From positions 347,109 to 411,108 of the forward strand of contig CAWFJP010000005.1 of assembly GCA_963816145.1 (NCBI GenBank): a stretch of 64,000 nucleotides of DNA, read 5' to 3'. The stretch comes from an uncultured delta proteobacterium (lineage in GTDB: Bacteria; Desulfobacterota; Binatia; UBA9968). Made by a program: the position numbers and the translations under genes. The notes below the pieces were generated by a model. That model was not told the origin of the DNA. It worked only from the letters and a program-made list of their open reading frames with translations, and did not search any database. Shown one piece after another: positions 31 through 10,662 of this stretch; positions within the stretch are counted from its first letter, which is position 1; the number at the start of each line of letters is the position of its first letter.

Positions 31-1080
31 ATGAAGACATTATTCAGACTCATCGTGTCGTTGATCGTCACCGCTTCCGTTGACGTTTCGGCCCAGGGGG
101 CCAAGCCGTCGACCCTCGCTGATCTCGTTAAATATCGTGGCGCCGATCGGGAGAAGATTCTTTACGAGGGCGCCAAGCGGGAAGGAAGTTTCGTTTGGTA
201 CACCTCCCTGGTGCCGCATAAGGAGATCAGCAAGGTTTTCATGAGCAAGTATCCCGGTGTCAGCATTGATATCTATCGCGCCGACGGGGTGACCCTTGCG
301 AATCGCGCTATGGCCGAGCATCAGGCGCGCCGTCACATTATGGACGCCATCGAAACCACGCCGCCGCCATTGATGCCGCTGCGCGATAACAAGTTGCTGA
401 TGCCGTACTGGTCCCCGCATCTGGCGGCTTATCCCGAAATTGCCAAGGAAAAGGCCGATGGCGATCTGGTGTGGTGGAGCACTGACCGCGAGTCGTTGAT
501 CGGCGTCGGCTACAACAAGAATACATTTCCCGCCGCCGATCTGCCGAAGCGTTTCGACGACCTGCTCAAGCCGGCGTTGAAGGGCAAAATGGGGGTGGCG
601 AACAACGAGACCGGCGCCCGCGCCCTCGGCGGCATCATCAAGGCCAAGGGAGAGGAATTTGTCCGGCGGCTCAAAGATCAAGAAGCGCGCCCGCACGCGA
701 CAAGTGCCGCGGGGTTGGCCGATCTGATCATTCGTGGCGAGGTGCCGATCTCCTTTACCATGGTGCAAACCAATTTGACGCAGCCCGCTGCCACGCGCGG
801 CGCACCGGTGGGCTGGGTGCCGATGGAGGTCGTGCCGGTCAATGCCGGCGGCGCCGCGATTTCGGCCAATGCGGCCCATCCCCATGCGGCATTGTTGTTC
901 ATCGATTTTCTGCTTGGTCCGGAAGGCCAGAAGATGTATGCCGACAAACTTTTCTATACCAGCGCGACGAGAAAAGTCAGCTATGAGAAATGGTATCCCG
1001 ATAAAGGATTGACCACGGCGGAGTACGAAGAACGGGCCGACAAGTGGCTGAAGCTCCTGCGCGAGATTACCCGAAAGTAG
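31..1080 (+). CDS. ABC transporter extracellular solute-binding protein (Fe3+/thiamine-type)
   Basis: Signal peptide; AKREGSFVWYTS and AAHPHAALLFIDFLLGPEGQ motifs; AAGGA RBS. Confidence 0.85.
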   Translation: MKTLFRLIVSLIVTASVDVSAQGAKPSTLADLVKYRGADREKILYEGAKREGSFVWYTSLVPHKEISKVFMSKYPGVSIDIYRADGVTLANRAMAEHQARRHIMDAIETTPPPLMPLRDNKLLMPYWSPHLAAYPEIAKEKADGDLVWWSTDRESLIGVGYNKNTFPAADLPKRFDDLLKPALKGKMGVANNETGARALGGIIKAKGEEFVRRLKDQEARPHATSAAGLADLIIRGEVPISFTMVQTNLTQPAATRGAPVGWVPMEVVPVNAGGAAISANAAHPHAALLFIDFLLGPEGQKMYADKLFYTSATRKVSYEKWYPDKGLTTAEYEERADKWLKLLREITRK

Positions 1081-1328
1081 CTTGCGGGGCGCTTATGTGG
1101 CTCAATTCCCTGTACGAATTCCCCTTATTTAACAGAAGGTTGCCACGACTTCAGAGTCTTTTCTTGAAGACTGCCTAGCTAAAATGGCCGGTTCGACCGG
1201 CATAATATTTTCAAGCCGCCGAAATTCAACGGGAAATACCCCTCGGCGAAGTGAATCCCGCACCCCCTCCCTTTGACGTCTAACTAACGAGTGATAAGCG
1301 TAGCTGCTCCAACTTAGGGGAGGGCATA

Positions 1329-1391
1329 ATGGCTGCAAAAATCGACTGCATGACCTGCCGGAAACGGCCGAGAAAAAAGACGCGGAAATAG
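1329..1391 (+). CDS. Putative 20-aa peptide MAAKIDCMTCRKRPRKKTRK (below ORF-track cutoff)
   Basis: AGGGGAGGG (1316-1324) just before ATG; TTGACG at 1273-1278; terminator downstream; CxxC plus basic tail. Confidence 0.5.
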   Translation: MAAKIDCMTCRKRPRKKTRK

Positions 1392-1451
1392 TGGATTGAT
1401 AATCGAGGATAGAGGATCGAAGATCGAAAAACTCTCCGTTACCAATACCAA

Positions 1452-1497
1452 AAACAAAAAAGGGCCTGCGATAAACAACGCAGGCCCTTTTTTGTTT
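1452..1497. terminator. Bidirectional intrinsic terminator
   Basis: AAACAAAAAAGGGCCTGCG-8 nt loop-CGCAGGCCCTTTTTTGTTT, a perfect 19-bp inverted repeat between convergent units. Confidence 0.9.
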
Positions 1498-1516
1498 AAC
1501 GGGTGATCTTCTCGAT

Positions 1517-2353
1517 TTAGAAGAAAGCCAACGTCCGCATCTCGATGCTTTCGCGCGGCGGCACATTGGGCGGGGCCGTCGGGTCGTCAAAGGCGCAGTG
1601 GGCGGTCCAGCGGGCCCGGCCGTCTTTGAGCGAGTCGTAGCACTTGAACACCATGGCCTCGTTGCGCTGCATGTTGGGAAAGTAGCACCAGCGATGCGCC
1701 GGGTTATGGGTCATGTGGTAGACCTCGCCGCGCCGGTTCGGGTAAATGCGCGCGCTCGGGATCAGTTCACTGGTTCCAATGGACTGGGCGTCGGCGATGG
1801 CGAGATGGTCGTTTTGCACCGGCTGGTTGATCGGCCGCCAGGTTTGCACCACGGCGAAGCGCCGGCTGATGAGTTCTTCGGCTTCATCTGGCAGCAACTC
1901 GCGCACCCGCTGCGGTCCCGACCACTCCGTGTAGTCATTGTGCGCGTTGCGTACCGGGCTGCTTACCTGATTGGCCTCGCGGATGGCGCTGTCCGCGGCG
2001 CGCAACGTGTGATCGAACACCAGCACCCGTTTGGCGCCGGAGATTTGCTTTACCAGTTCCTCGGTTTCGTTGTAATAGATCGAGCGCACTTCATCTTCGT
2101 CGTAGAAATTTTTCACCTGGGTGTCGTGACGGACGAGGACGAACCCCTCGCGCTCCAGTGACAGCCGATCGGCGATGTCCCGGCCATTGTAGATCGGCAT
2201 CTTGAACTCGGCGTACTTGCCCTTGCGCTTTTGGTCCGCTACCTCTTGCCGGACCCCGCCATAGCTCTCGGGTGTTTCGCTAGTATCGACGAGATAGTTC
2301 AAAATCGCTTCAAATGCCGGCGCGGGCTCGTTGATTTGTTCGGCTCGTGACAT
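1517..2353 (-). CDS. CmcJ/NvfI/AsaB-family oxidoreductase
   Basis: LEREGF, VFDHTLR, AHNDYT, WRPI, HRWCYFPNM, AHCAFDDP, RESIEMR motifs; start set at ATG 2353. Confidence 0.85.
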   Translation of the reverse strand: MSRAEQINEPAPAFEAILNYLVDTSETPESYGGVRQEVADQKRKGKYAEFKMPIYNGRDIADRLSLEREGFVLVRHDTQVKNFYDEDEVRSIYYNETEELVKQISGAKRVLVFDHTLRAADSAIREANQVSSPVRNAHNDYTEWSGPQRVRELLPDEAEELISRRFAVVQTWRPINQPVQNDHLAIADAQSIGTSELIPSARIYPNRRGEVYHMTHNPAHRWCYFPNMQRNEAMVFKCYDSLKDGRARWTAHCAFDDPTAPPNVPPRESIEMRTLAFF

Positions 2354-2385
2354 AAGCGGTTTCCTTTGGGGGTAATCGAACAATG

Positions 2386-2472
2386 GTTCACCACGAAGGC
2401 ACGAAGGACACGAAGGTTTCGAACGATCTAACTTCCGAACTTCGCGCTTTTCGTGTCCTTCGTGGTGAACAT
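2386..2472. repeat. Intergenic palindromic element built of CACGAAG units
   Basis: GTTCACCACGAAGGCACGAAGGACACGAAG...TTCGTGTCCTTCGTGGTGAAC; a half copy occurs at 11944-11977. Confidence 0.8.
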
Positions 2473-2500
2473 GTCTTGGTCTTCGTGGCGCTGGCTATTC

Positions 2501-3139
2501 CTACTTCGGCATCATCTCGCAGGGTGTCTGCCTAGGGCCGAGGCTTTCGTAGTAGTCGTTGGTCTCCGGATTGTACCGGCCCTGGTTGAAGTCGCCGCCT
2601 TTTTGACTACGGATGATCACCGCCACGGTGCGTTCGCCGACGGTGAGCTCGGTGTGGATTTCATATGGCTTTACCAGATCGATGTCGCCCGGCCCGCAGA
2701 GCACGTTGCTCGATTCCTTGATCTGGGCAAAGTTGGGCTTGGAGCGGTCGTCGAGCCGGTCGTAGCGCACAACTTTTTCTCGGCCATCAATGACGCCATA
2801 AAGCGTGTAGATATGCGCGTGATCGTGAATCCGCGCCGGCGCGCCCTGGCGCGCTTGGCCTTTGGTCAGGCCGTTGATGGCGAAGCCGTAGTCGGGGTCC
2901 TCGTAGAAAAGCAGGTTCTCGGCGCGGCCGTTGGCGGGCACGCAATCGGGCCAGGTCTTCGAGGCGGCGACCATATCGGGATCGGCCAAGAGTTCGGCTA
3001 AGATCGGCCGCAGGCCATTCCAGCGTTTGTCGAGATCGGCTTCCTTGGCGAACAGCTCGCGGGTCTTTCGGATGAAACGATCTTTAGCATTTTCGCTGCT
3101 CGTTTGTCTCGTCGTGGTGGTTGCAGTTTGGGTTTCCAT
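2501..3139 (-). CDS. Cupin, cysteine dioxygenase-like protein
   Basis: IHDHAH and EIHTE metal-binding His motifs; GGAGGA RBS before ATG 3139. Confidence 0.7.
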   Translation of the reverse strand: METQTATTTTRQTSSENAKDRFIRKTRELFAKEADLDKRWNGLRPILAELLADPDMVAASKTWPDCVPANGRAENLLFYEDPDYGFAINGLTKGQARQGAPARIHDHAHIYTLYGVIDGREKVVRYDRLDDRSKPNFAQIKESSNVLCGPGDIDLVKPYEIHTELTVGERTVAVIIRSQKGGDFNQGRYNPETNDYYESLGPRQTPCEMMPK

Positions 3140-3152
3140 GTTTCCTCCTGGT

Positions 3153-4325
3153 CTAGGGTTGGAGTTGTGGTTGCGGGTTTGAGGTTGAGCTGCTGCGCGA
3201 TTCATATTCCCCCGCACCGTAGAAGCGCGCGCAGTTGTCCCAAAGGATCTTGCGCTTGTCGTCGTCGGAAAGTTTCAACTCAAGAAAGCTCTTGACGGCG
3301 TTGGGATACTTCGAGTCACCATGCGGATAGTCGGTGGAGAATACCAACTGATCGCAACCGAACTCTTCGATCGTGTAGCGTGCCGGCGCTTCATCGGGCT
3401 CGATGGAGATCCAGCATTGGCGTTTGAAATACTCGCTGGGCGGCATCTTCAAATCCGACATGAAGACATCGCCTTCACGCTCGTAGCCTTCGTCCAGCCG
3501 CCATAACAGCCAGGGCAGCCAGGAACAGTTGGCTTCAAGAAAGGCGACGCGCATCTTGGGATGACGTTCCAAAATACCTCCGCCCAAGAAAGCGCCCATG
3601 CCCATCATCTGCTCGAACGGTTGGGCATAAACGCGGCGCAGACCGAAGTTGGGTTCGAAATGTTCCGCCGCCTGGCGCGAGCGCGATGCCGAAGCTTCGT
3701 GGAAGCCCAACGGCAAATTCAATTCTTCGAGCAATTCCCAGAGCGGCTCGTAGTGCGGGTCATACCAGTTCTTGCCGTTGATGATGTTGGAGCGCAGGAA
3801 CACCGAGCGAAAACCATACTCTTCTTTGACCCGGCGGGTTTCGCGCAAAGCATCGTCGAGATCGTAGACCGAGATCATGCCGGCGCCGAGGAGCCGCTCG
3901 GGATCGGCGGAGCAAAAGTCATGCAGCCAATCGTTGTAGGCGCGCGCCATGGCGTCAGCGAAGCGCGGATCTTGGTCGGGGAAGGTGAGTATGCCCAGTC
4001 CGCGAGTCGGGAACAGCACCGCGGTGTCGATGCCTTCGGTGTCCATCGCTTCCAACTGCACGTGACCGGTCCAGCCGCGCTCGGCGTGGCTGCGATAGAT
4101 CTCCTGATTCTTATTGAAGTTGCTGCCGCGGTGCGGTGTGCCACCGGTGCGCCGGGTGTCTTTGGGCACTTTAGGAAAGATCGTGCCGAGATCGCGGACG
4201 TTGTCCGAGGTCCGGCCGCGCGGCGCCTGATCGCGAAATTTGGGATCAATATAGCGCTCCCAAAGATCGGGCGGCTCCATGATATGCATGTCGCTGTCGA
4301 AAACTTTGAATCCATTTTTCGCCAT
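3153..4325 (-). CDS. Amidohydrolase family 2 protein
   Basis: DSDMHIMEP, AYNDWL, GFHE, FLEANCSWLP, FSTDYPH, ILWDNCARFY. Confidence 0.9.
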   Translation of the reverse strand: MAKNGFKVFDSDMHIMEPPDLWERYIDPKFRDQAPRGRTSDNVRDLGTIFPKVPKDTRRTGGTPHRGSNFNKNQEIYRSHAERGWTGHVQLEAMDTEGIDTAVLFPTRGLGILTFPDQDPRFADAMARAYNDWLHDFCSADPERLLGAGMISVYDLDDALRETRRVKEEYGFRSVFLRSNIINGKNWYDPHYEPLWELLEELNLPLGFHEASASRSRQAAEHFEPNFGLRRVYAQPFEQMMGMGAFLGGGILERHPKMRVAFLEANCSWLPWLLWRLDEGYEREGDVFMSDLKMPPSEYFKRQCWISIEPDEAPARYTIEEFGCDQLVFSTDYPHGDSKYPNAVKSFLELKLSDDDKRKILWDNCARFYGAGEYESRSSSTSNPQPQLQP

Positions 4326-4518
4326 GGTTCCCCCTTTGATTTGCCGAGCGTAATGCCGAGTTAGGGGAGATGTCAAGCAATGTTTACTTTGAGTTGTCGG
4401 CGGGTTGGATCGCCGCTCCAGCGCGCAGATTCGGCGGAGATTTCTCGCTGCCCTCGAAATGACTATTGATGATGAATTGACCATGTCACAGTTTGCGGTC
4501 TTTCAAGTGTCGCTAACG

Positions 4519-5476: not shown

Positions 5477-5595
5477 GCGGAATAGTTATTGAATTTACAA
5501 ACAAGCACGCCCTTTCTCTGCGGTCAATTGACAAGCGCTCTTTGCCCAATTACATCTCGTACAGTCGAGGGATATCTAACGGAATGCCGGGAGCT

Positions 5596-6582
5596 ATGAG
5601 CATGACTGTTCGAACATTGGTCGGTATCGCCATTCTGGTTTTGCTCAGTTCGGTCGACCTGAGCGCGCAAAGCCGCAAGGTGCGGGTGGCGATGCCGGGC
5701 TACACCATCGCCGGGATTTCATTTCTTACCGCGAAGGTCAACGGCTACTACGCCGCCGAGGGCTTGGATGTGGAGCTGATCGCCATGCGCGCGCCGACGG
5801 CGAATCTCGCCGTGCTGAGCAGCAGCGTGGAGTTCTCCACGGTGCCTTTGGCTGGATTGAATACGGCGCTGCGCGGCGGCGCATTGAAGATCGTCATGGT
5901 CCACTTCGACAAGCCGCAGCATGTGTTGTTTGTCAAGAATGACCTGCAAAATCTAAAACTCTTGCGCGGCAAAAAAGTCGCCGTGTCCGGGCCGGGAGTG
6001 ATCGACGACTTGCTGTTGCGTGAAGTGCTGGGAAATAACGGCATCGATGCCAACAAAGAGCTGGCTATTCTCAGCATGGGTTCGGCGGATACCCGGGTGA
6101 CCAGCTTGATCAGTGGCGCGGTGGACGGAGCGATGATCATCGCTCCGCATACTTTTACCGCCAAGGACGCGGGCTTTCGCGAATTGGTGGTGTTTCGCGA
6201 CCAGGGTTTGCTCTTGCCGAGCGGCGGTATCGCGGCACGGGACGAAACACTGAAAAACGATCCGGGTTTGGTGGAGCGCTTCACGCGCGCGTCGATGATG
6301 GGGTTCATCCACTCGCGCGATAACCGCGCCGGCGCGATCCGGGTTCTTAGCAAGACGTTAAGGATCGACGAGACGATCGCCGCGAAAGTATACGATTCGT
6401 CGCGACCGACGATGACGGCCGACGGCACGCTCAGTGACGATGCACAAAAGAAAATGGCTGCTTTTGTCGCTAAGTCTGCCGGCCTTAAAGAAATCATAGC
6501 GGCGGACAAGGCCTTCGATTTCTCGTTTGTACGCAAGGCTAACGCTGCGTTGCACACCAAAGGCTGGCAGCCGCTGCCGTGA
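5596..6582 (+). CDS. ABC substrate-binding protein, NMT1/THI5/SsuA-like
   Basis: Signal peptide; GYYAAEGLDVEL, LRGKKVAV, FDFSFV motifs; GGGAG RBS. Confidence 0.85.
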   Translation: MSMTVRTLVGIAILVLLSSVDLSAQSRKVRVAMPGYTIAGISFLTAKVNGYYAAEGLDVELIAMRAPTANLAVLSSSVEFSTVPLAGLNTALRGGALKIVMVHFDKPQHVLFVKNDLQNLKLLRGKKVAVSGPGVIDDLLLREVLGNNGIDANKELAILSMGSADTRVTSLISGAVDGAMIIAPHTFTAKDAGFRELVVFRDQGLLLPSGGIAARDETLKNDPGLVERFTRASMMGFIHSRDNRAGAIRVLSKTLRIDETIAAKVYDSSRPTMTADGTLSDDAQKKMAAFVAKSAGLKEIIAADKAFDFSFVRKANAALHTKGWQPLP

Positions 6583-6631: not shown

Positions 6632-7906
6632 ATGCAACTGACACTGGCCTATCACCCGGTTAGCTCGATTCGCTTCGGCGCTAAATTGAATTTGGACGGC
6701 ACGGTGCTGACGGTTAGCCAAGACGAATTGCGCGCCATTGTTCTCGAAGACTCGCTGATCGAAGCGGTGGACTTCGCCCTCGCCGCGCCCAACGACAGCC
6801 TGCGCGCCGGGCCGGTGTTCGATATCGTCGAGCCGCGCGCCAAGGCGGCGGTCGGCAGCCCGGACTGGCCGGGGATTCTCGGTGCGCCGCAGACCGCCGG
6901 CAGCGGCACTACGCATGTGCTGTCCGGTGCGGCAGTGACCATGCTGCGTGAGGACTCTTCCGGTGATTCGCGCGGCGCCACTGGTTACGTCCTCGAAATG
7001 AGCGGCGCGCCGGCGGCGGGCTCGCATTACGGCACGCTGCGGCATTTGATCGTCGTACCGCGTACTCGGCCGAATATTCCGGCGGCCGCGCGTCAGCGCG
7101 CTTACCGTTTAGCGCAATTGAAAATGGCTGTGCGACTGGCACAGGCGGCTTTTTCTGTCGTACCGGCGCGATCCGAAGTCCTCGATAACGCGGATGCCGA
7201 GCCGCGCGCCGGCTTGCCGCGGCTGGCTTACATTGGTCAAATCTTTTCACGTCAGCGCAAACCGGAAGCCGATGAGCATATACTTTACGGCACTGACACC
7301 GACGGCATGCTGCCGACCCTCCTCCATCCCAACGAGTGGCTCGACGGCGCGTTGGTGCCGTCGTACCACGCGTCAATCGGTGGCGCAGAAACCTATTTTT
7401 ATCAAAATCATCCAGTGATTCTCGAACTCTACCGGCGCCATCGCGCGGGTGAAATAAATTTCATCGGCTCGGTGGCGACGATAGCCTCGGCCAATAATTT
7501 CGACCGCGAACGCAACACGCGCTTTGCGGCCAATCTTACTAAATGGGCACTGCGCGCTGATGCCGCAGTGCTGACCAAGTTCGGCGGCGGCGTGCCGCAC
7601 ACGGATTTGTCGGAGACCGCGCGCGTACTCGAAACCATGGGTGTCAAGACCGCCGTGCAGGTTACGGATCTCGCGCGCGACCACCGGATCGAGTCGGCGC
7701 TATTGTTCAACTTCCCCGAGGTCGACGCCATCGTCTGCATCGGCGGCAACGACACCCACTGGAAGCTGCCGCAGGTCGAGCGCGTGATCGCGGCCAGCAG
7801 CGGCCTGGCGGAGTTGCTCGCCGGCCCGTTGGAGATCGACTCGCTCAATGTGATCGGCGTCGCCAACCAGCAAGGGGCGTCGCGATTGAAGTCGGTGGTG
7901 TATTAA
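6632..7906 (+). CDS. Glycine/sarcosine/betaine reductase component B proprotein-like subunit (GrdE/GrdG/GrdI family)
   Basis: DIVEPRAK, GSGTTHVLSG, PTLLHPNEWLDGAL, TYFYQNHPVILELY motifs; adjacent to a selenoprotein B homolog. Confidence 0.85.
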   Translation: MQLTLAYHPVSSIRFGAKLNLDGTVLTVSQDELRAIVLEDSLIEAVDFALAAPNDSLRAGPVFDIVEPRAKAAVGSPDWPGILGAPQTAGSGTTHVLSGAAVTMLREDSSGDSRGATGYVLEMSGAPAAGSHYGTLRHLIVVPRTRPNIPAAARQRAYRLAQLKMAVRLAQAAFSVVPARSEVLDNADAEPRAGLPRLAYIGQIFSRQRKPEADEHILYGTDTDGMLPTLLHPNEWLDGALVPSYHASIGGAETYFYQNHPVILELYRRHRAGEINFIGSVATIASANNFDRERNTRFAANLTKWALRADAAVLTKFGGGVPHTDLSETARVLETMGVKTAVQVTDLARDHRIESALLFNFPEVDAIVCIGGNDTHWKLPQVERVIAASSGLAELLAGPLEIDSLNVIGVANQQGASRLKSVVY

Positions 7907-7917
7907 GAGGGCGTGAG

Positions 7918-7983
7918 GCCTGAGACGCGAGGCTTGAGTAAATCCGGAATCCGAACTCATGTCTCAAGCCTCGCGCCTCAGGC
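7918..7983. repeat. 21-bp inverted repeat (1 mismatch, 24-nt loop) between the two reductase genes
   Basis: GCCTGAGACGCGAGGCTTGAG / CTCAAGCCTCGCGCCTCAGGC. Confidence 0.85.
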
Positions 7984-8000
7984 GTACTTAGGAGTTTGTC

Positions 8001-9272
8001 ATGCGTGTCGTACATTACGTCAATCAATTTTTCGGTGGGCTCGGCGGTGAAGAACACGCAGGAAATGCGCTTGAAATTCGCGATGGTGCGGTGGGGCCGG
8101 GCAAGTTGCTGGAACAACTCTTTGGCAACGACTGCCAAGTGGTGATGACGTTGGTCTGCGGCGATAACTACGCTGTGGAGAATCTGGAGGCGTTGACGGC
8201 CGCTGTATTGGAAAAAATTCGCGCTGCCCAGGCCGATCTGTTTGTCGCCGGGCCATGCTTTCTAGCGGGGCGATACGGCCTGGCGGCGGGGGCGCTGTGC
8301 GCGGCCGCGCAGGCGACATTGAAAATTCCCGTCATCACCGCCATGGCGGCGGAGAATCCCGGCGCCGATCTCTACCGCGAGTTCATGTATATCGTCGACT
8401 CCGGTGACAATAGCGCTAAGATGCGCGAGGTGTTGACGCGAATGGCGGCCATGGCACAGAAGCTCATGCGTCATGAGATCATCGGCAGCCCCAAGGATGA
8501 AGGCTATCTCGTGCGCGGATTGATCCGCGATGAATTTGTCGAGCTATCCGCCGGCCAGCGCTTGGTCGATATGGTGCTCAAGAAAGTGCGCGGCGAGCCC
8601 TTCGAGAGCGAAATGAGTCCGACCACCTTCGCGCCGGTACCGAAGCCGCCGGCGATCGCCGATCTGACAAAAGCCAAGGTGATGCTGGTTACCGACGGCG
8701 GGCTGGTGCCGAAGGGCAATCCAGACAAGATCCAGGGCTCGGCGGCGACTCGCTGGGGCGTGTACAGTGTCAAAGGTTGCCAAGATTTGGATGGCGCCGA
8801 CTACGAGATCTCCCACGGCGGCTATGATCCGCAGTTCGTGCGCCAGGATCCGGATCGGCTGGTGCCGCTGGATGTCATGCGCGAACTGGAACGGGAGGGC
8901 GTCATCGGCGAGTTGCACGAAGAGTTTATTTCCACTTCGGGTCTGTCTAATCCATTGTCGAACACCCGGCGCATGGGACGGGAGATGGCAGCCAAGGCGA
9001 AGCAGCTGGGCATCGACGCGATCATTCTGACTTCAACGTGAGGCACCAGCACTCGCAGCGGCGCTGCGATCACTACGGAATTGGAAAAGGCCGGTATTCC
9101 CACGGTGCAGATTACCGCCGCGTTGCCCGTGGCGAAGATGGTCGGCGCCAATCGGTTGGTGCTCGGCAATGGTATCGTCCATGTGGTGGGCGATGCCAAG
9201 GTATCGAAAGAGGACGAAAAGAAGCTGCGGCGCCGCTTGGTGGAGCAGGCTCTCGCGGCGATGCAAAAGTAA
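8001..9272 (+). CDS. Glycine/sarcosine/betaine reductase selenoprotein B family protein (GrdB/F/H-like), 423 aa, Sec at TGA 9039-9041
   Basis: MRVVHYVNQFFGG, AGPCFLAGRYG, VTDGGLVPKGNPD, HGGYD, DPDRLVPLD; ILTST-TGA-GTSTRSGA continues in frame into ORF 9081-9272 (EKAGIPTVQIT, VGANR). Confidence 0.92.
9053..9069 (+). promoter_or_regulatory. Bacterial SECIS-like hairpin
   Basis: TCGCAGC-GGC-GCTGCGA beginning after an 11-nt spacer following the in-frame TGA; G-containing apical loop. Confidence 0.75.
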
Positions 9273-9522: not shown

Positions 9523-10662
9523 ATGAAACGTAGATTGATTGGACCGACGGTCATCGCCACGACGCTTTGCCTAGTGCTGTTGCAGCACCGTTTTTTTGGC
9601 GACAAAGGTTGGAGTCTCCTCGGGGTTCTGGGAAAAGTCCTGTCCGTCGTGGGTGCGATCCTTACGCCGCCCGAATCGGTCAGCAGCTTTTTTTATACTA
9701 ATCTCGCGTTGCCGCTGGCGGTCGTTGTTACGGCGCTGGTTGTGCTTTGGATGATTCTAGCCGGCGCCCGGAAGACGATGCGTCAAGTGACCCCCGACGC
9801 GGAGGCGCCGATCTGGGAACTCCCCGTCACCAGCGATACCACTTCGGAGAGCGAACCGTTGGACGACGCGCCTGAATTGTCTTGGTCGCTGCCAGCCTAT
9901 CGCTTCAATTGTCTACGCAGCAAGCTGGTCCTGGGATTTCTCGCGATCAGCCTGTTCGTCGTGGTCGCGGCTGCGTCATTCACTTACAGCTATTTACATC
10001 GCGCGGTGGAGGGCGGCGCCAAGGCGCGCGCAGGCATCACCGCGATGGCGGTCAACGCCACGGCGGTTTGGCATGTCGATGGAAAGAGGTATCAGGAGCT
10101 GCGCGACGAATTGGTCAAGACGACGACCCGACCAGCGGTCGCCTACGCCTATGTCGAGGACAGTGATGGCGAGTTGATTGCTCACGCTCCGAAAGATCTG
10201 CCGAATCATTTGATTCGCCGGCCGTTGTTGGAGCCGCGCCTGATGACTGGCGAACAGTTGGTGGGTTATCGCAACGAGATCGTCTACGACTACGCCCAGC
10301 GCAGTGGCTTGAACAATCGATTCGTCGTCCATCTGGGAATCTGGCAGGACTCGGTGGTGGCCGAGACATGGTCAGTGTTGGGGCCGATCTTGCTTGCGGT
10401 CATTTTGTTGATACTCTGCGCCGCGGCGGTGTTTCTCGTTATGTTGCGGGACCTGCACCGGCCGCTGCTTGAGCTGGTCGAACAGTCGACGCGCATTAGC
10501 AAAGGCAATTTTTCCGTGGCCCTGGCAACCAAGCGGGACGATGAACTGGGAGATCTGGCTCGCTCGTTGGAACGCATGAGATCGAGTTTGCGCGCAGTGC
10601 TTTCCCGTATTGGCACGGAACCTACGGCGACTCCGTCGGAGCGGCAGAGGCGATCGTTTTAG
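9523..10662 (+). CDS. Membrane protein with sensor region and C-terminal HAMP domain, no output domain
   Basis: Several TM segments; RPLLEL...ISKGNF...DDELGDLARSLERMR HAMP, then stop. Confidence 0.7.
   Translation: MKRRLIGPTVIATTLCLVLLQHRFFGDKGWSLLGVLGKVLSVVGAILTPPESVSSFFYTNLALPLAVVVTALVVLWMILAGARKTMRQVTPDAEAPIWELPVTSDTTSESEPLDDAPELSWSLPAYRFNCLRSKLVLGFLAISLFVVVAAASFTYSYLHRAVEGGAKARAGITAMAVNATAVWHVDGKRYQELRDELVKTTTRPAVAYAYVEDSDGELIAHAPKDLPNHLIRRPLLEPRLMTGEQLVGYRNEIVYDYAQRSGLNNRFVVHLGIWQDSVVAETWSVLGPILLAVILLILCAAAVFLVMLRDLHRPLLELVEQSTRISKGNFSVALATKRDDELGDLARSLERMRSSLRAVLSRIGTEPTATPSERQRRSF

Follow-up and report, generated by a model that had tools for sequence, protein, structure and literature searches.

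A putative selenocysteine-containing GrdB-family gene in an uncultured Binatia bacterium and its departures from textbook glycine reductase

We analysed a 64,000-nucleotide stretch of DNA (the window) from an uncultured delta proteobacterium of the Binatia (assembly GCA_963816145.1, contig CAWFJP010000005.1, positions 347,109 to 411,108) and find that positions 8001-9272 almost certainly constitute, judging from sequence, a genuine selenocysteine (Sec, U) gene of the glycine/sarcosine/betaine-reductase selenoprotein B (GrdB) family. The best overall explanation, which we consider very probable, is that this Sec gene encodes a protein B component that works with a GrdE-like partner, probably on a substrate other than glycine. 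The recoding event itself is known and ordinary for the family; the lineage and its system-level differences apparently represent a variant not described so far, and this genome has six of its modules.

Results

A single gene with an in-frame TGA

The open reading frame (ORF) at 8001-9041 is closed by a TGA at 9039-9041, after which the same frame stays open to a TAA at 9270-9272. Translation with TGA read as Sec gives 424 codons, with a single TGA at codon 347, and a 423-residue product in which Sec stands in the context I-L-T-S-T-U-G-T-S-T-R-S-G-A-A-I-T-T-E. A preliminary description of this DNA had proposed a hidden selenoprotein, in which an in-frame UGA and a selenocysteine insertion sequence (SECIS) join ORFs 8001-9041 and 9081-9272; sequence and translation bear out both the common frame and the residues it had given after Sec (G-T-S-T-R-S-G-A-A-I-T-T-E). 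The start of the listed ORF 9081-9272 is merely the first TTG in the frame, coding continuing directly from 9042. The NCBI pipeline annotates such selenoproteins through NCBIfam models, and simple ORF callers truncate them; the annotation fix here is one 423-residue selenoprotein instead of a 346-residue fragment. The features on which this reading rests are:

8001-9272, plus strand: predicted GrdB-family selenoprotein B gene, one gene and not two ORFs (translation with TGA as U; PF07355; TIGR01918)
9039-9041, plus strand: in-frame TGA, predicted to be read as Sec, in the motif T-S-T-U-G-T-S-T-R-S-G-A (79 of 79 loci; six of six paralogs)
9053-9069, plus strand: putative SECIS hairpin with a 7-bp stem (9053-9059/9063-9069) and the loop GGC (9060-9062) (fold, paralogs, covariation)

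The Pfam model GRDB (PF07355) matches residues 1-346 of the product (E = 7.9e-131; 436.9 bits, cut-off 22), and the NCBIfam model TIGR01918, the subfamily model for glycine/betaine/sarcosine/D-proline family reductase selenoprotein B, matches residues 2-422 of 423 (480 bits, cut-off 65.45), so that this match crosses the TGA and covers the whole post-UGA part. We scanned one genome per prokaryote species and confirmed 305 relatives, from which 79 loci were kept. The nearest relatives are metagenome-assembled genomes labelled 'Candidatus Binatia' or 'uncultured delta proteobacterium' (73-90% identity), followed by Chloroflexota, SAR202 and Nitrospinota (57-69%) and by Firmicutes (43-47%). At the position of codon 347, every one of the 79 loci has an in-frame TGA within T-S-T-U-G-T-x-T-R-x-G-A (81 TGA sites, two loci having two copies each), and in most of them the tblastn alignment spans residues 1-422/423.

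Two checks named in the preliminary description, alignment to GrdB and conservation of the frame after the UGA, thus come out positive, and its statement that GrdB-family proteins have Sec at TST-U-G holds throughout these loci. Its GrdB identity is upheld at the level of family membership and not for glycine-specific GrdB, whose equivalog model TIGR01917 scores 443.2 bits, below its cut-off of 602.2.

A conserved and covarying hairpin at the SECIS position

The hairpin TCGCAGC-GGC-GCTGCGA begins after an 11-nucleotide (nt) spacer (9042-9052), where the preliminary description had placed it, and is present in both the minimum free energy (MFE) fold and the centroid fold. Counted from the U of UGA, a stem at nt 15-21/25-31 recurs in all six GrdB paralogs of this genome and in two short PrdB-like genes with a TGA, whose hairpins are quite different in sequence and identical in geometry. 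The minimal SECIS of E. coli fdhF, as given in the available excerpt of PMC8659212, is a 17-nt stem-loop at nt 15-31, starting 11 nt after the UGA and with G23 in the loop, in agreement with the geometry that the preliminary description had quoted. The window hairpin shares all of these properties; it differs in having C instead of U at position 24 and a 3-nt loop closed by a 7-bp stem without unpaired bases. This loop is GGC here and GGU in Firmicutes.

Because the folding energy of the hairpin is unremarkable, we used conservation and covariation as support instead. The alignment held 87 sequences (81 sites and six paralogs), or 76 distinct rows. Standard pairs fill 94.4% of its 532 cells, against 82.2 +/- 1.0 in shuffled alignments, and sliding the 3' arm by 1-3 columns lowers pairing to 13.9-61.5% of cells. 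The covariation score is 0.332, compared with 0.130 in shuffles, and 69 cells are changed on both sides, compared with 26.9; for each of these three measures, none of 500 shuffles reached the observed value. At pair 18-28, 47 rows have CG and 28 have UA; at pair 19-27, 42 have AU, 33 have UA and one has GC. The compensatory changes combine non-synonymous replacements among Ser AGC, Cys UGC and Gly GGC with a synonymous change in the opposite Ala codon. Loop positions G22 and G23 are invariant in the 87 sequences.

Sec machinery and other readings of the TGA

The genome (a 7.82-Mb assembly in 31 contigs, 99.47% complete, with 6.72% contamination) carries adjacent selA, selB and selD genes on contig C30; they score 616, 417 and 380 bits, each above the respective cut-off, and selD itself has one TGA. 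ARAGORN places a tRNA-Sec with anticodon tca (selC) 10 kb from these three genes. The Sec machinery that the preliminary description had proposed to look for is thus present, and the hidden selenoprotein it had postulated is supported by the family match, the conserved TGA, the covarying hairpin and this machinery. During translation, the UGA at 9039-9041 would be decoded by Sec-tRNA(Sec), with SelB binding the 17-nt hairpin that starts 11 nt downstream and delivering the charged tRNA.

Two other readings of the TGA can be weighed against Sec insertion. If translation ended at this codon, we would be dealing with a truncated pseudogene or a 346-residue protein, and the frame beyond it would be a remnant. 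TGA is indeed a common stop in the window, where it ends 22 of the 53 frames of at least 250 codons (not all of these frames being genes), and the assembly does contain frame errors. A remnant is nevertheless hard to reconcile with 76 post-UGA residues that match the family model to its end, with a TGA kept at the site in every one of the loci, which come from many phyla, with a covarying hairpin at the SECIS position or with a complete Sec machinery in the genome, and we regard a true stop as highly improbable. We give just as little credence to the reading of UGA as cysteine or tryptophan, through suppression or a variant code and without selenium. Nothing specific speaks for it; the replacement of Sec by Cys in family searches is purely technical. 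Against it stand the tRNA-Sec and the adjacent selA, selB and selD, the fact that other genes here end normally in TGA, and the count of loci with a Cys codon in place of the TGA (0 of 79). According to the excerpt of PMC1794560 available, Cys homologues of GrdA and GrdB are very rare or absent.

The gene pair departs from textbook glycine reductase

Directly upstream of the Sec gene lies a gene for the predicted second protein B subunit:

6632-7906, plus strand: GrdE-like partner, predicted other subunit of protein B, without the self-cleavage cysteine pair (PF09338, E = 5.3e-72)

Neither member of the pair reaches a substrate-specific model. The window protein scores 483.8 bits with the GrdF model (cut-off 800) and 433.7 bits with the GrdH model (cut-off 775), and the FarB model is not among its NCBIfam matches. 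In the positive controls, the Paraclostridium protein (L080) is called GrdB at 820 bits and the Anaerovorax protein (L054b) GrdF at 827 bits, and all six paralogs of this genome stay below every substrate-specific cut-off. The partner belongs to PF09338, the GrdE/PrdA family; its best NCBIfam matches are GrdG (175 bits, cut-off 780) and FarE (137.3 bits, cut-off 675).

Sequence motifs differ as well. The glycine-GrdB motif, of which the excerpt of PMC9751293 lists the elements GPxF[NF]AGRYG, AHGGxD[QTAP], RV[IL]PxD and TxGNxTxV among others, is matched by 25 of the 79 family rows and by none of the six paralogs of this genome, and the window protein fails four of its six elements. A regular expression for the GrdF motif was tried and set aside: it matches 0 of 79 rows, missing even L054b, which NCBIfam calls GrdF, so that lacking this motif is uninformative. 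The excerpt of PMC13188914 gives the redox motif of GrdB as U-x-x-C-x-x-C; the window protein reads U-G-T-S-T-R-S, that is U-x-x-S-x-x-S, with no CxxC after Sec. Aligned with Firmicute GrdE, the partner shows ..VPSYHASIGGAETY.. where the Firmicute proteins show ..SGNCVSACDKNP..: its segment V-P-S-Y-H-A-S-I-G-G-A-E-T-Y contains no Cys, and the Firmicute segment reads S-G-N-C-V-S-A-C-D-K-N-P. In this alignment, the N-C-x-x-x-C cleavage site is found in none of the seven GrdE-like genes of this genome. As stated in the excerpt of PMC10838667, the GrdE cysteine pair serves self-cleavage to a pyruvoyl group; FarB (fluoroacetate reductase) lacks the CxxC, and neither FarE nor the betaine-specific GrdI has the processing cysteines or is made as a pro-protein.

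GrdD, modelled by NF040747, scores at best 20.3 bits in this genome (cut-off 350). It exceeds the cut-off in none of 31 genomes of the same genus and order (these include the unpublished G005, on which alone no claim rests) and in none of the three Dehalococcoidia, SAR202 and Nitrospinota genomes in which the closest relatives outside Binatia occur. Both Firmicute controls carry it (609 and 611 bits), and GrdC exceeds its cut-off in all five of these latter genomes (two Firmicutes and three Chloroflexota/Nitrospinota).

Compared with clostridial GrdB and GrdE, the window pair thus belongs to the same fold family over its full length, has Sec in T-S-T-U-G and a SECIS at the same nucleotides, places grdB next to a GrdE-family gene, and occurs in a genome with a GrdA bearing C-x-x-U and a GrdC homologue. 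It is unlike them in its identity of about 43-47% to the Firmicute proteins, its equivalog score, its U-x-x-S-x-x-S, its partner free of cleavage cysteines, the failure to find GrdD, the placement of grdA and grdC on another contig, and the presence of six paralogous pairs. With FarB/FarE and GrdH/GrdI it shares the lack of a CxxC after Sec (FarB) and of processing cysteines (FarE, GrdI), a likeness that rests on statements in the excerpt of PMC10838667 and on alignment against GrdE only. It is unlike FarE and GrdH in score, reaching 137 bits where the FarE cut-off is 675 and 434 where the GrdH cut-off is 775. By analogy, the pair would resemble enzymes whose substrates need no Schiff base and yet be a member of neither group.

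GrdA is intact and grdC is broken in this assembly

GrdA is encoded on contig C2, intact and with one TGA, in the context C-F-V-U-T-A-A-G-A-M. Directly upstream of it, and hence like it on another contig than the window gene, lies grdC (C2:210846-212232; L106:6814-8240 in the extracted locus) in four frame pieces, which sum to about 510 bits. Relative to two intact orthologues it contains three 1-base indels. We aligned contigs from four other public metagenome runs to the region and found one base fewer at 7239/7242 in three of the four runs (X1, X2, X5), one base fewer at 7660/7661 in two (X1, X5) and one base more at 8122/8125 in all four. Apart from these indels, some of the contigs are close to identical with the assembly, differing at 2 other letters in 169, at 10 in 545 and at 11 in a 372-base piece. 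Because contigs of the other runs restore the frame at all three sites, the breaks are most likely assembly errors; a strain-specific defect of grdC is the alternative, which we do not favour. Decay of grdC into a pseudogene was our first reading and was dropped for the same frame-restoring changes.

One relative has the gene order grdC, a gap that would fit grdA, grdE, grdB. Relative G023 carries a radical SAM (S-adenosylmethionine) gene (L119:13440-14402) about 1 kb downstream of grdC-grdE-grdB, which scores 449 bits with TIGR04167, the model for the arsenosugar biosynthesis (seleno)protein ArsS. Between grdC and grdA of the window genome, L106:8200-8412 is AT-rich and made of short tandem units (..AAATCCGAAA..TTCGAAAT..). 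Its summed contig depth is 800-4300 in two runs, compared with about 10 in the flanking genes, an excess that points to a highly repeated element in those metagenomes.

Substrate, mechanism and points on the other side

By homology, the GrdB-like protein and the GrdE-like protein encoded upstream of it would form a substrate-specific protein B. The selenol of the GrdB-like subunit would attack the alpha-carbon of a carboxymethyl-X compound and release X, and the carboxymethyl group would then pass to the Sec of GrdA, whose gene adjoins grdC on another contig; the final product may differ from acetyl phosphate. We lean towards a substrate other than glycine on account of the U-x-x-S-x-x-S motif, the partner without a pyruvoyl-forming cysteine and the failure to find GrdD. 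By analogy with betaine (GrdH/GrdI) and fluoroacetate (FarB/FarE), the more likely substrate is a compound in which the C-X bond can be cleaved without Schiff-base activation.

The conventional alternative is that the window gene encodes a glycine reductase protein B as in clostridia, which reductively deaminates glycine and, through GrdA and protein C, yields acetyl phosphate. It would account for the same family and the same gene pair, for the GrdA and the grdC homologue in the genome, and for a GrdC over the cut-off in 24 of the 31 relatives. The glycine equivalog score and the four failed elements of the glycine-GrdB motif, as excerpted from PMC9751293, tell against it, as do the missing CxxC and a partner without the processing cysteine, in which no pyruvoyl group for a Schiff base is expected from the account in PMC10838667. 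GrdD, moreover, exceeds its cut-off in none of those relatives while the controls are positive. We consider glycine reduction of this kind very unlikely. A broader proposal goes further than a non-glycine protein B, and we put it forward tentatively, as possible but rather doubtful: that an undescribed reductase system, with the pair as one of its six substrate modules, is common to Binatia-type soil bacteria, Dehalococcoidia/SAR202 and Nitrospinota. Such a system would consist of a cysteine-less GrdB, a pyruvoyl-less GrdE, GrdA and GrdC, would have no GrdD, and would often have a DUF255 thioredoxin-like protein nearby. In bacteria not regarded as amino-acid fermenters, its Sec might break C-N, C-halogen or C-S bonds in several different substrates with a carboxymethyl group, such as betaines, haloacetates and sulfoacetate, and the carboxymethyl group would meet a fate other than GrdD-dependent formation of acetyl phosphate.

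Returning to the preferred interpretation, a Sec-containing protein B with a probable non-glycine substrate, several points weigh against it. We infer Sec insertion at codon 347 from sequence features and the machinery genes, which is a sequence-level basis. The 71-nt fold, at -18 kcal/mol, has z = -0.01 and is matched by 96 of 200 shuffles. Three pairs change on both sides, compared with 2.9 in shuffles, of which 457 of 500 reach this number, and the outermost pair is unpaired in 24 of the 76 distinct rows; because the rows fall in a few large clades, the compensatory events that are independent are few. The bulged U17 of the fdhF element is missing here. On the side of the pathway, the absence of GrdD rests on one hidden Markov model, so that a very divergent substitute could be missed, and real grdC frameshifts would leave this strain with a defect in the steps that follow GrdA. 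Finally, the non-glycine reading is an analogy to FarBE and GrdHI drawn from one paper (PMC10838667, in excerpt).

Paralogs, phylogeny and distribution

TIGR01918 finds six full-length genes in this genome, each with one TGA and each adjoined by a PF09338 gene, with ABC solute-binding genes of various families nearby. After Sec, the five paralogs other than the window gene read UGTSTRS, UGSCSRG, UGTCSRS, UGSSTRC and UGTGTRS. Of the 31 related genomes, 27 contain members of the family, nine matches being the most in any one of them. We built a quick maximum-likelihood tree of 79 rows, leaving out the 8 of 87 rows shorter than 380 residues. In this tree, the rows with U-G-T-S-T-R-S form one clade of 34 (Shimodaira-Hasegawa-like approximate likelihood ratio test, SH-aLRT, 100), which contains the window gene, the paralog on contig C31, and Binatia, Chloroflexota and Nitrospinota rows. 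The Firmicute rows with the canonical U-G-T-C-T-R-C form a separate clade of 30 (SH-aLRT 96). For the remaining four paralogs, which have long branches, this quick tree gives no reliable position. A well-supported clade keeps Sec and yet has lost three hallmarks, namely the cysteines after Sec, the pyruvoyl site and GrdD.

Some of the paralogous loci show irregularities. In the GrdB paralog on contig C8 (C8:46679-47890; L104:8665-9999), the model match ends at residue 404 of 431, with an aberrant C-terminus beyond, and the GrdE-like gene of the pair on contig C27 (L101:6722-8030) falls into two ORFs that overlap. In either case the cause may be another 1-base assembly error or a real break. 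Two short ORFs, at C4:264228-264575 (minus strand) and C14:205250-205654 (plus strand), are distantly related to the C-terminal part of PrdB/GrdB. Each has an in-frame TGA in [YF]-U-P-x-C-H and, 11 nt after it, a hairpin of 7 bp with a 3-nt loop, and both are probably further selenoprotein genes.

At least half of the sampled 31-mers of 6632-9272 occur in 19 runs from 18 studies, almost all labelled as soil or wetland metagenomes, which carry near-identical copies of the grdE-grdB stretch; in the only RNA run (X20), the fraction is 0.06. We found no paper joining Binatota or Binatia with selenoprotein, selenocysteine or glycine reductase in a search that lay outside most subscription journals, and no glycine reductase system without GrdD was visible in the literature listing on missing GrdD or GrdC. 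If the modules reduce osmolytes, halogenated acids or sulfonates, the reductive chemistry of abundant soil and ocean bacteria would extend to selenium-dependent reactions, and the present genes would be a set on which selenium-dependent reduction can be tested.

Genomic neighbourhood

Around the gene pair, the window contains four further features:

3153-4484, minus strand: Amidohydro_2 family gene, the most conserved upstream neighbour of grdE-grdB (PF04909, E = 4.6e-28)
5542-6582, plus strand: NMT1/SsuA-type solute-binding protein gene directly upstream of grdE (PF09084, E = 8.1e-18)
7912-7992, plus strand: long imperfect hairpin from the grdE stop to the grdB start, ending at the ribosome-binding site AGGAG (7990-7994) (MFE -44 kcal/mol)
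9523-10662, plus strand: HAMP-domain sensor-like protein gene, conserved downstream neighbour (PF00672 at residues 307-358 of 379)

Among 41 loci (L022-L062), a homologue of the Amidohydro_2 gene (75-95% identity) stands beside grdE in 16, and a homologue of the HAMP protein (28-73% identity) follows grdB in 16. No output domain, kinase or other, was recognised after HAMP in the 9523-10662 protein. The solute-binding gene, whose TIGR01728 score of 70.7 bits is below the cut-off, keeps its position in only three loci (L022, L025, L027), and solute-binding and methyltransferase genes between the Amidohydro_2 and HAMP neighbours are likewise confined to three of the 41. We had considered the solute-binding gene as a clue to the substrate and dropped it: given its presence in three of 41 loci and at least five solute-binding genes in the window, its adjacency is weak evidence. 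The other paralogs adjoin different binding-protein families.

A DUF255 / Thioredoxin_7 gene of 500-580 residues adjoins the grdE-like gene at the C31 paralog (L102:10908-12506) and stands beside a grdE-like gene in three of four examined Chloroflexota/Nitrospinota loci (L056:2888-4633, L058:7879-9630, L059:3098-4612), making the DUF255 protein a candidate redox partner of this branch. The spacer hairpin at 7912-7992 is built of 7-base units (GGCGTGA GGCCTGA ...) and looks like an intergenic repeat of the repetitive extragenic palindromic/bacterial interspersed mosaic element (REP/BIME) type. In several orthologous loci and at the C31 paralog (-57 kcal/mol), this spacer likewise contains a hairpin, of a different sequence.

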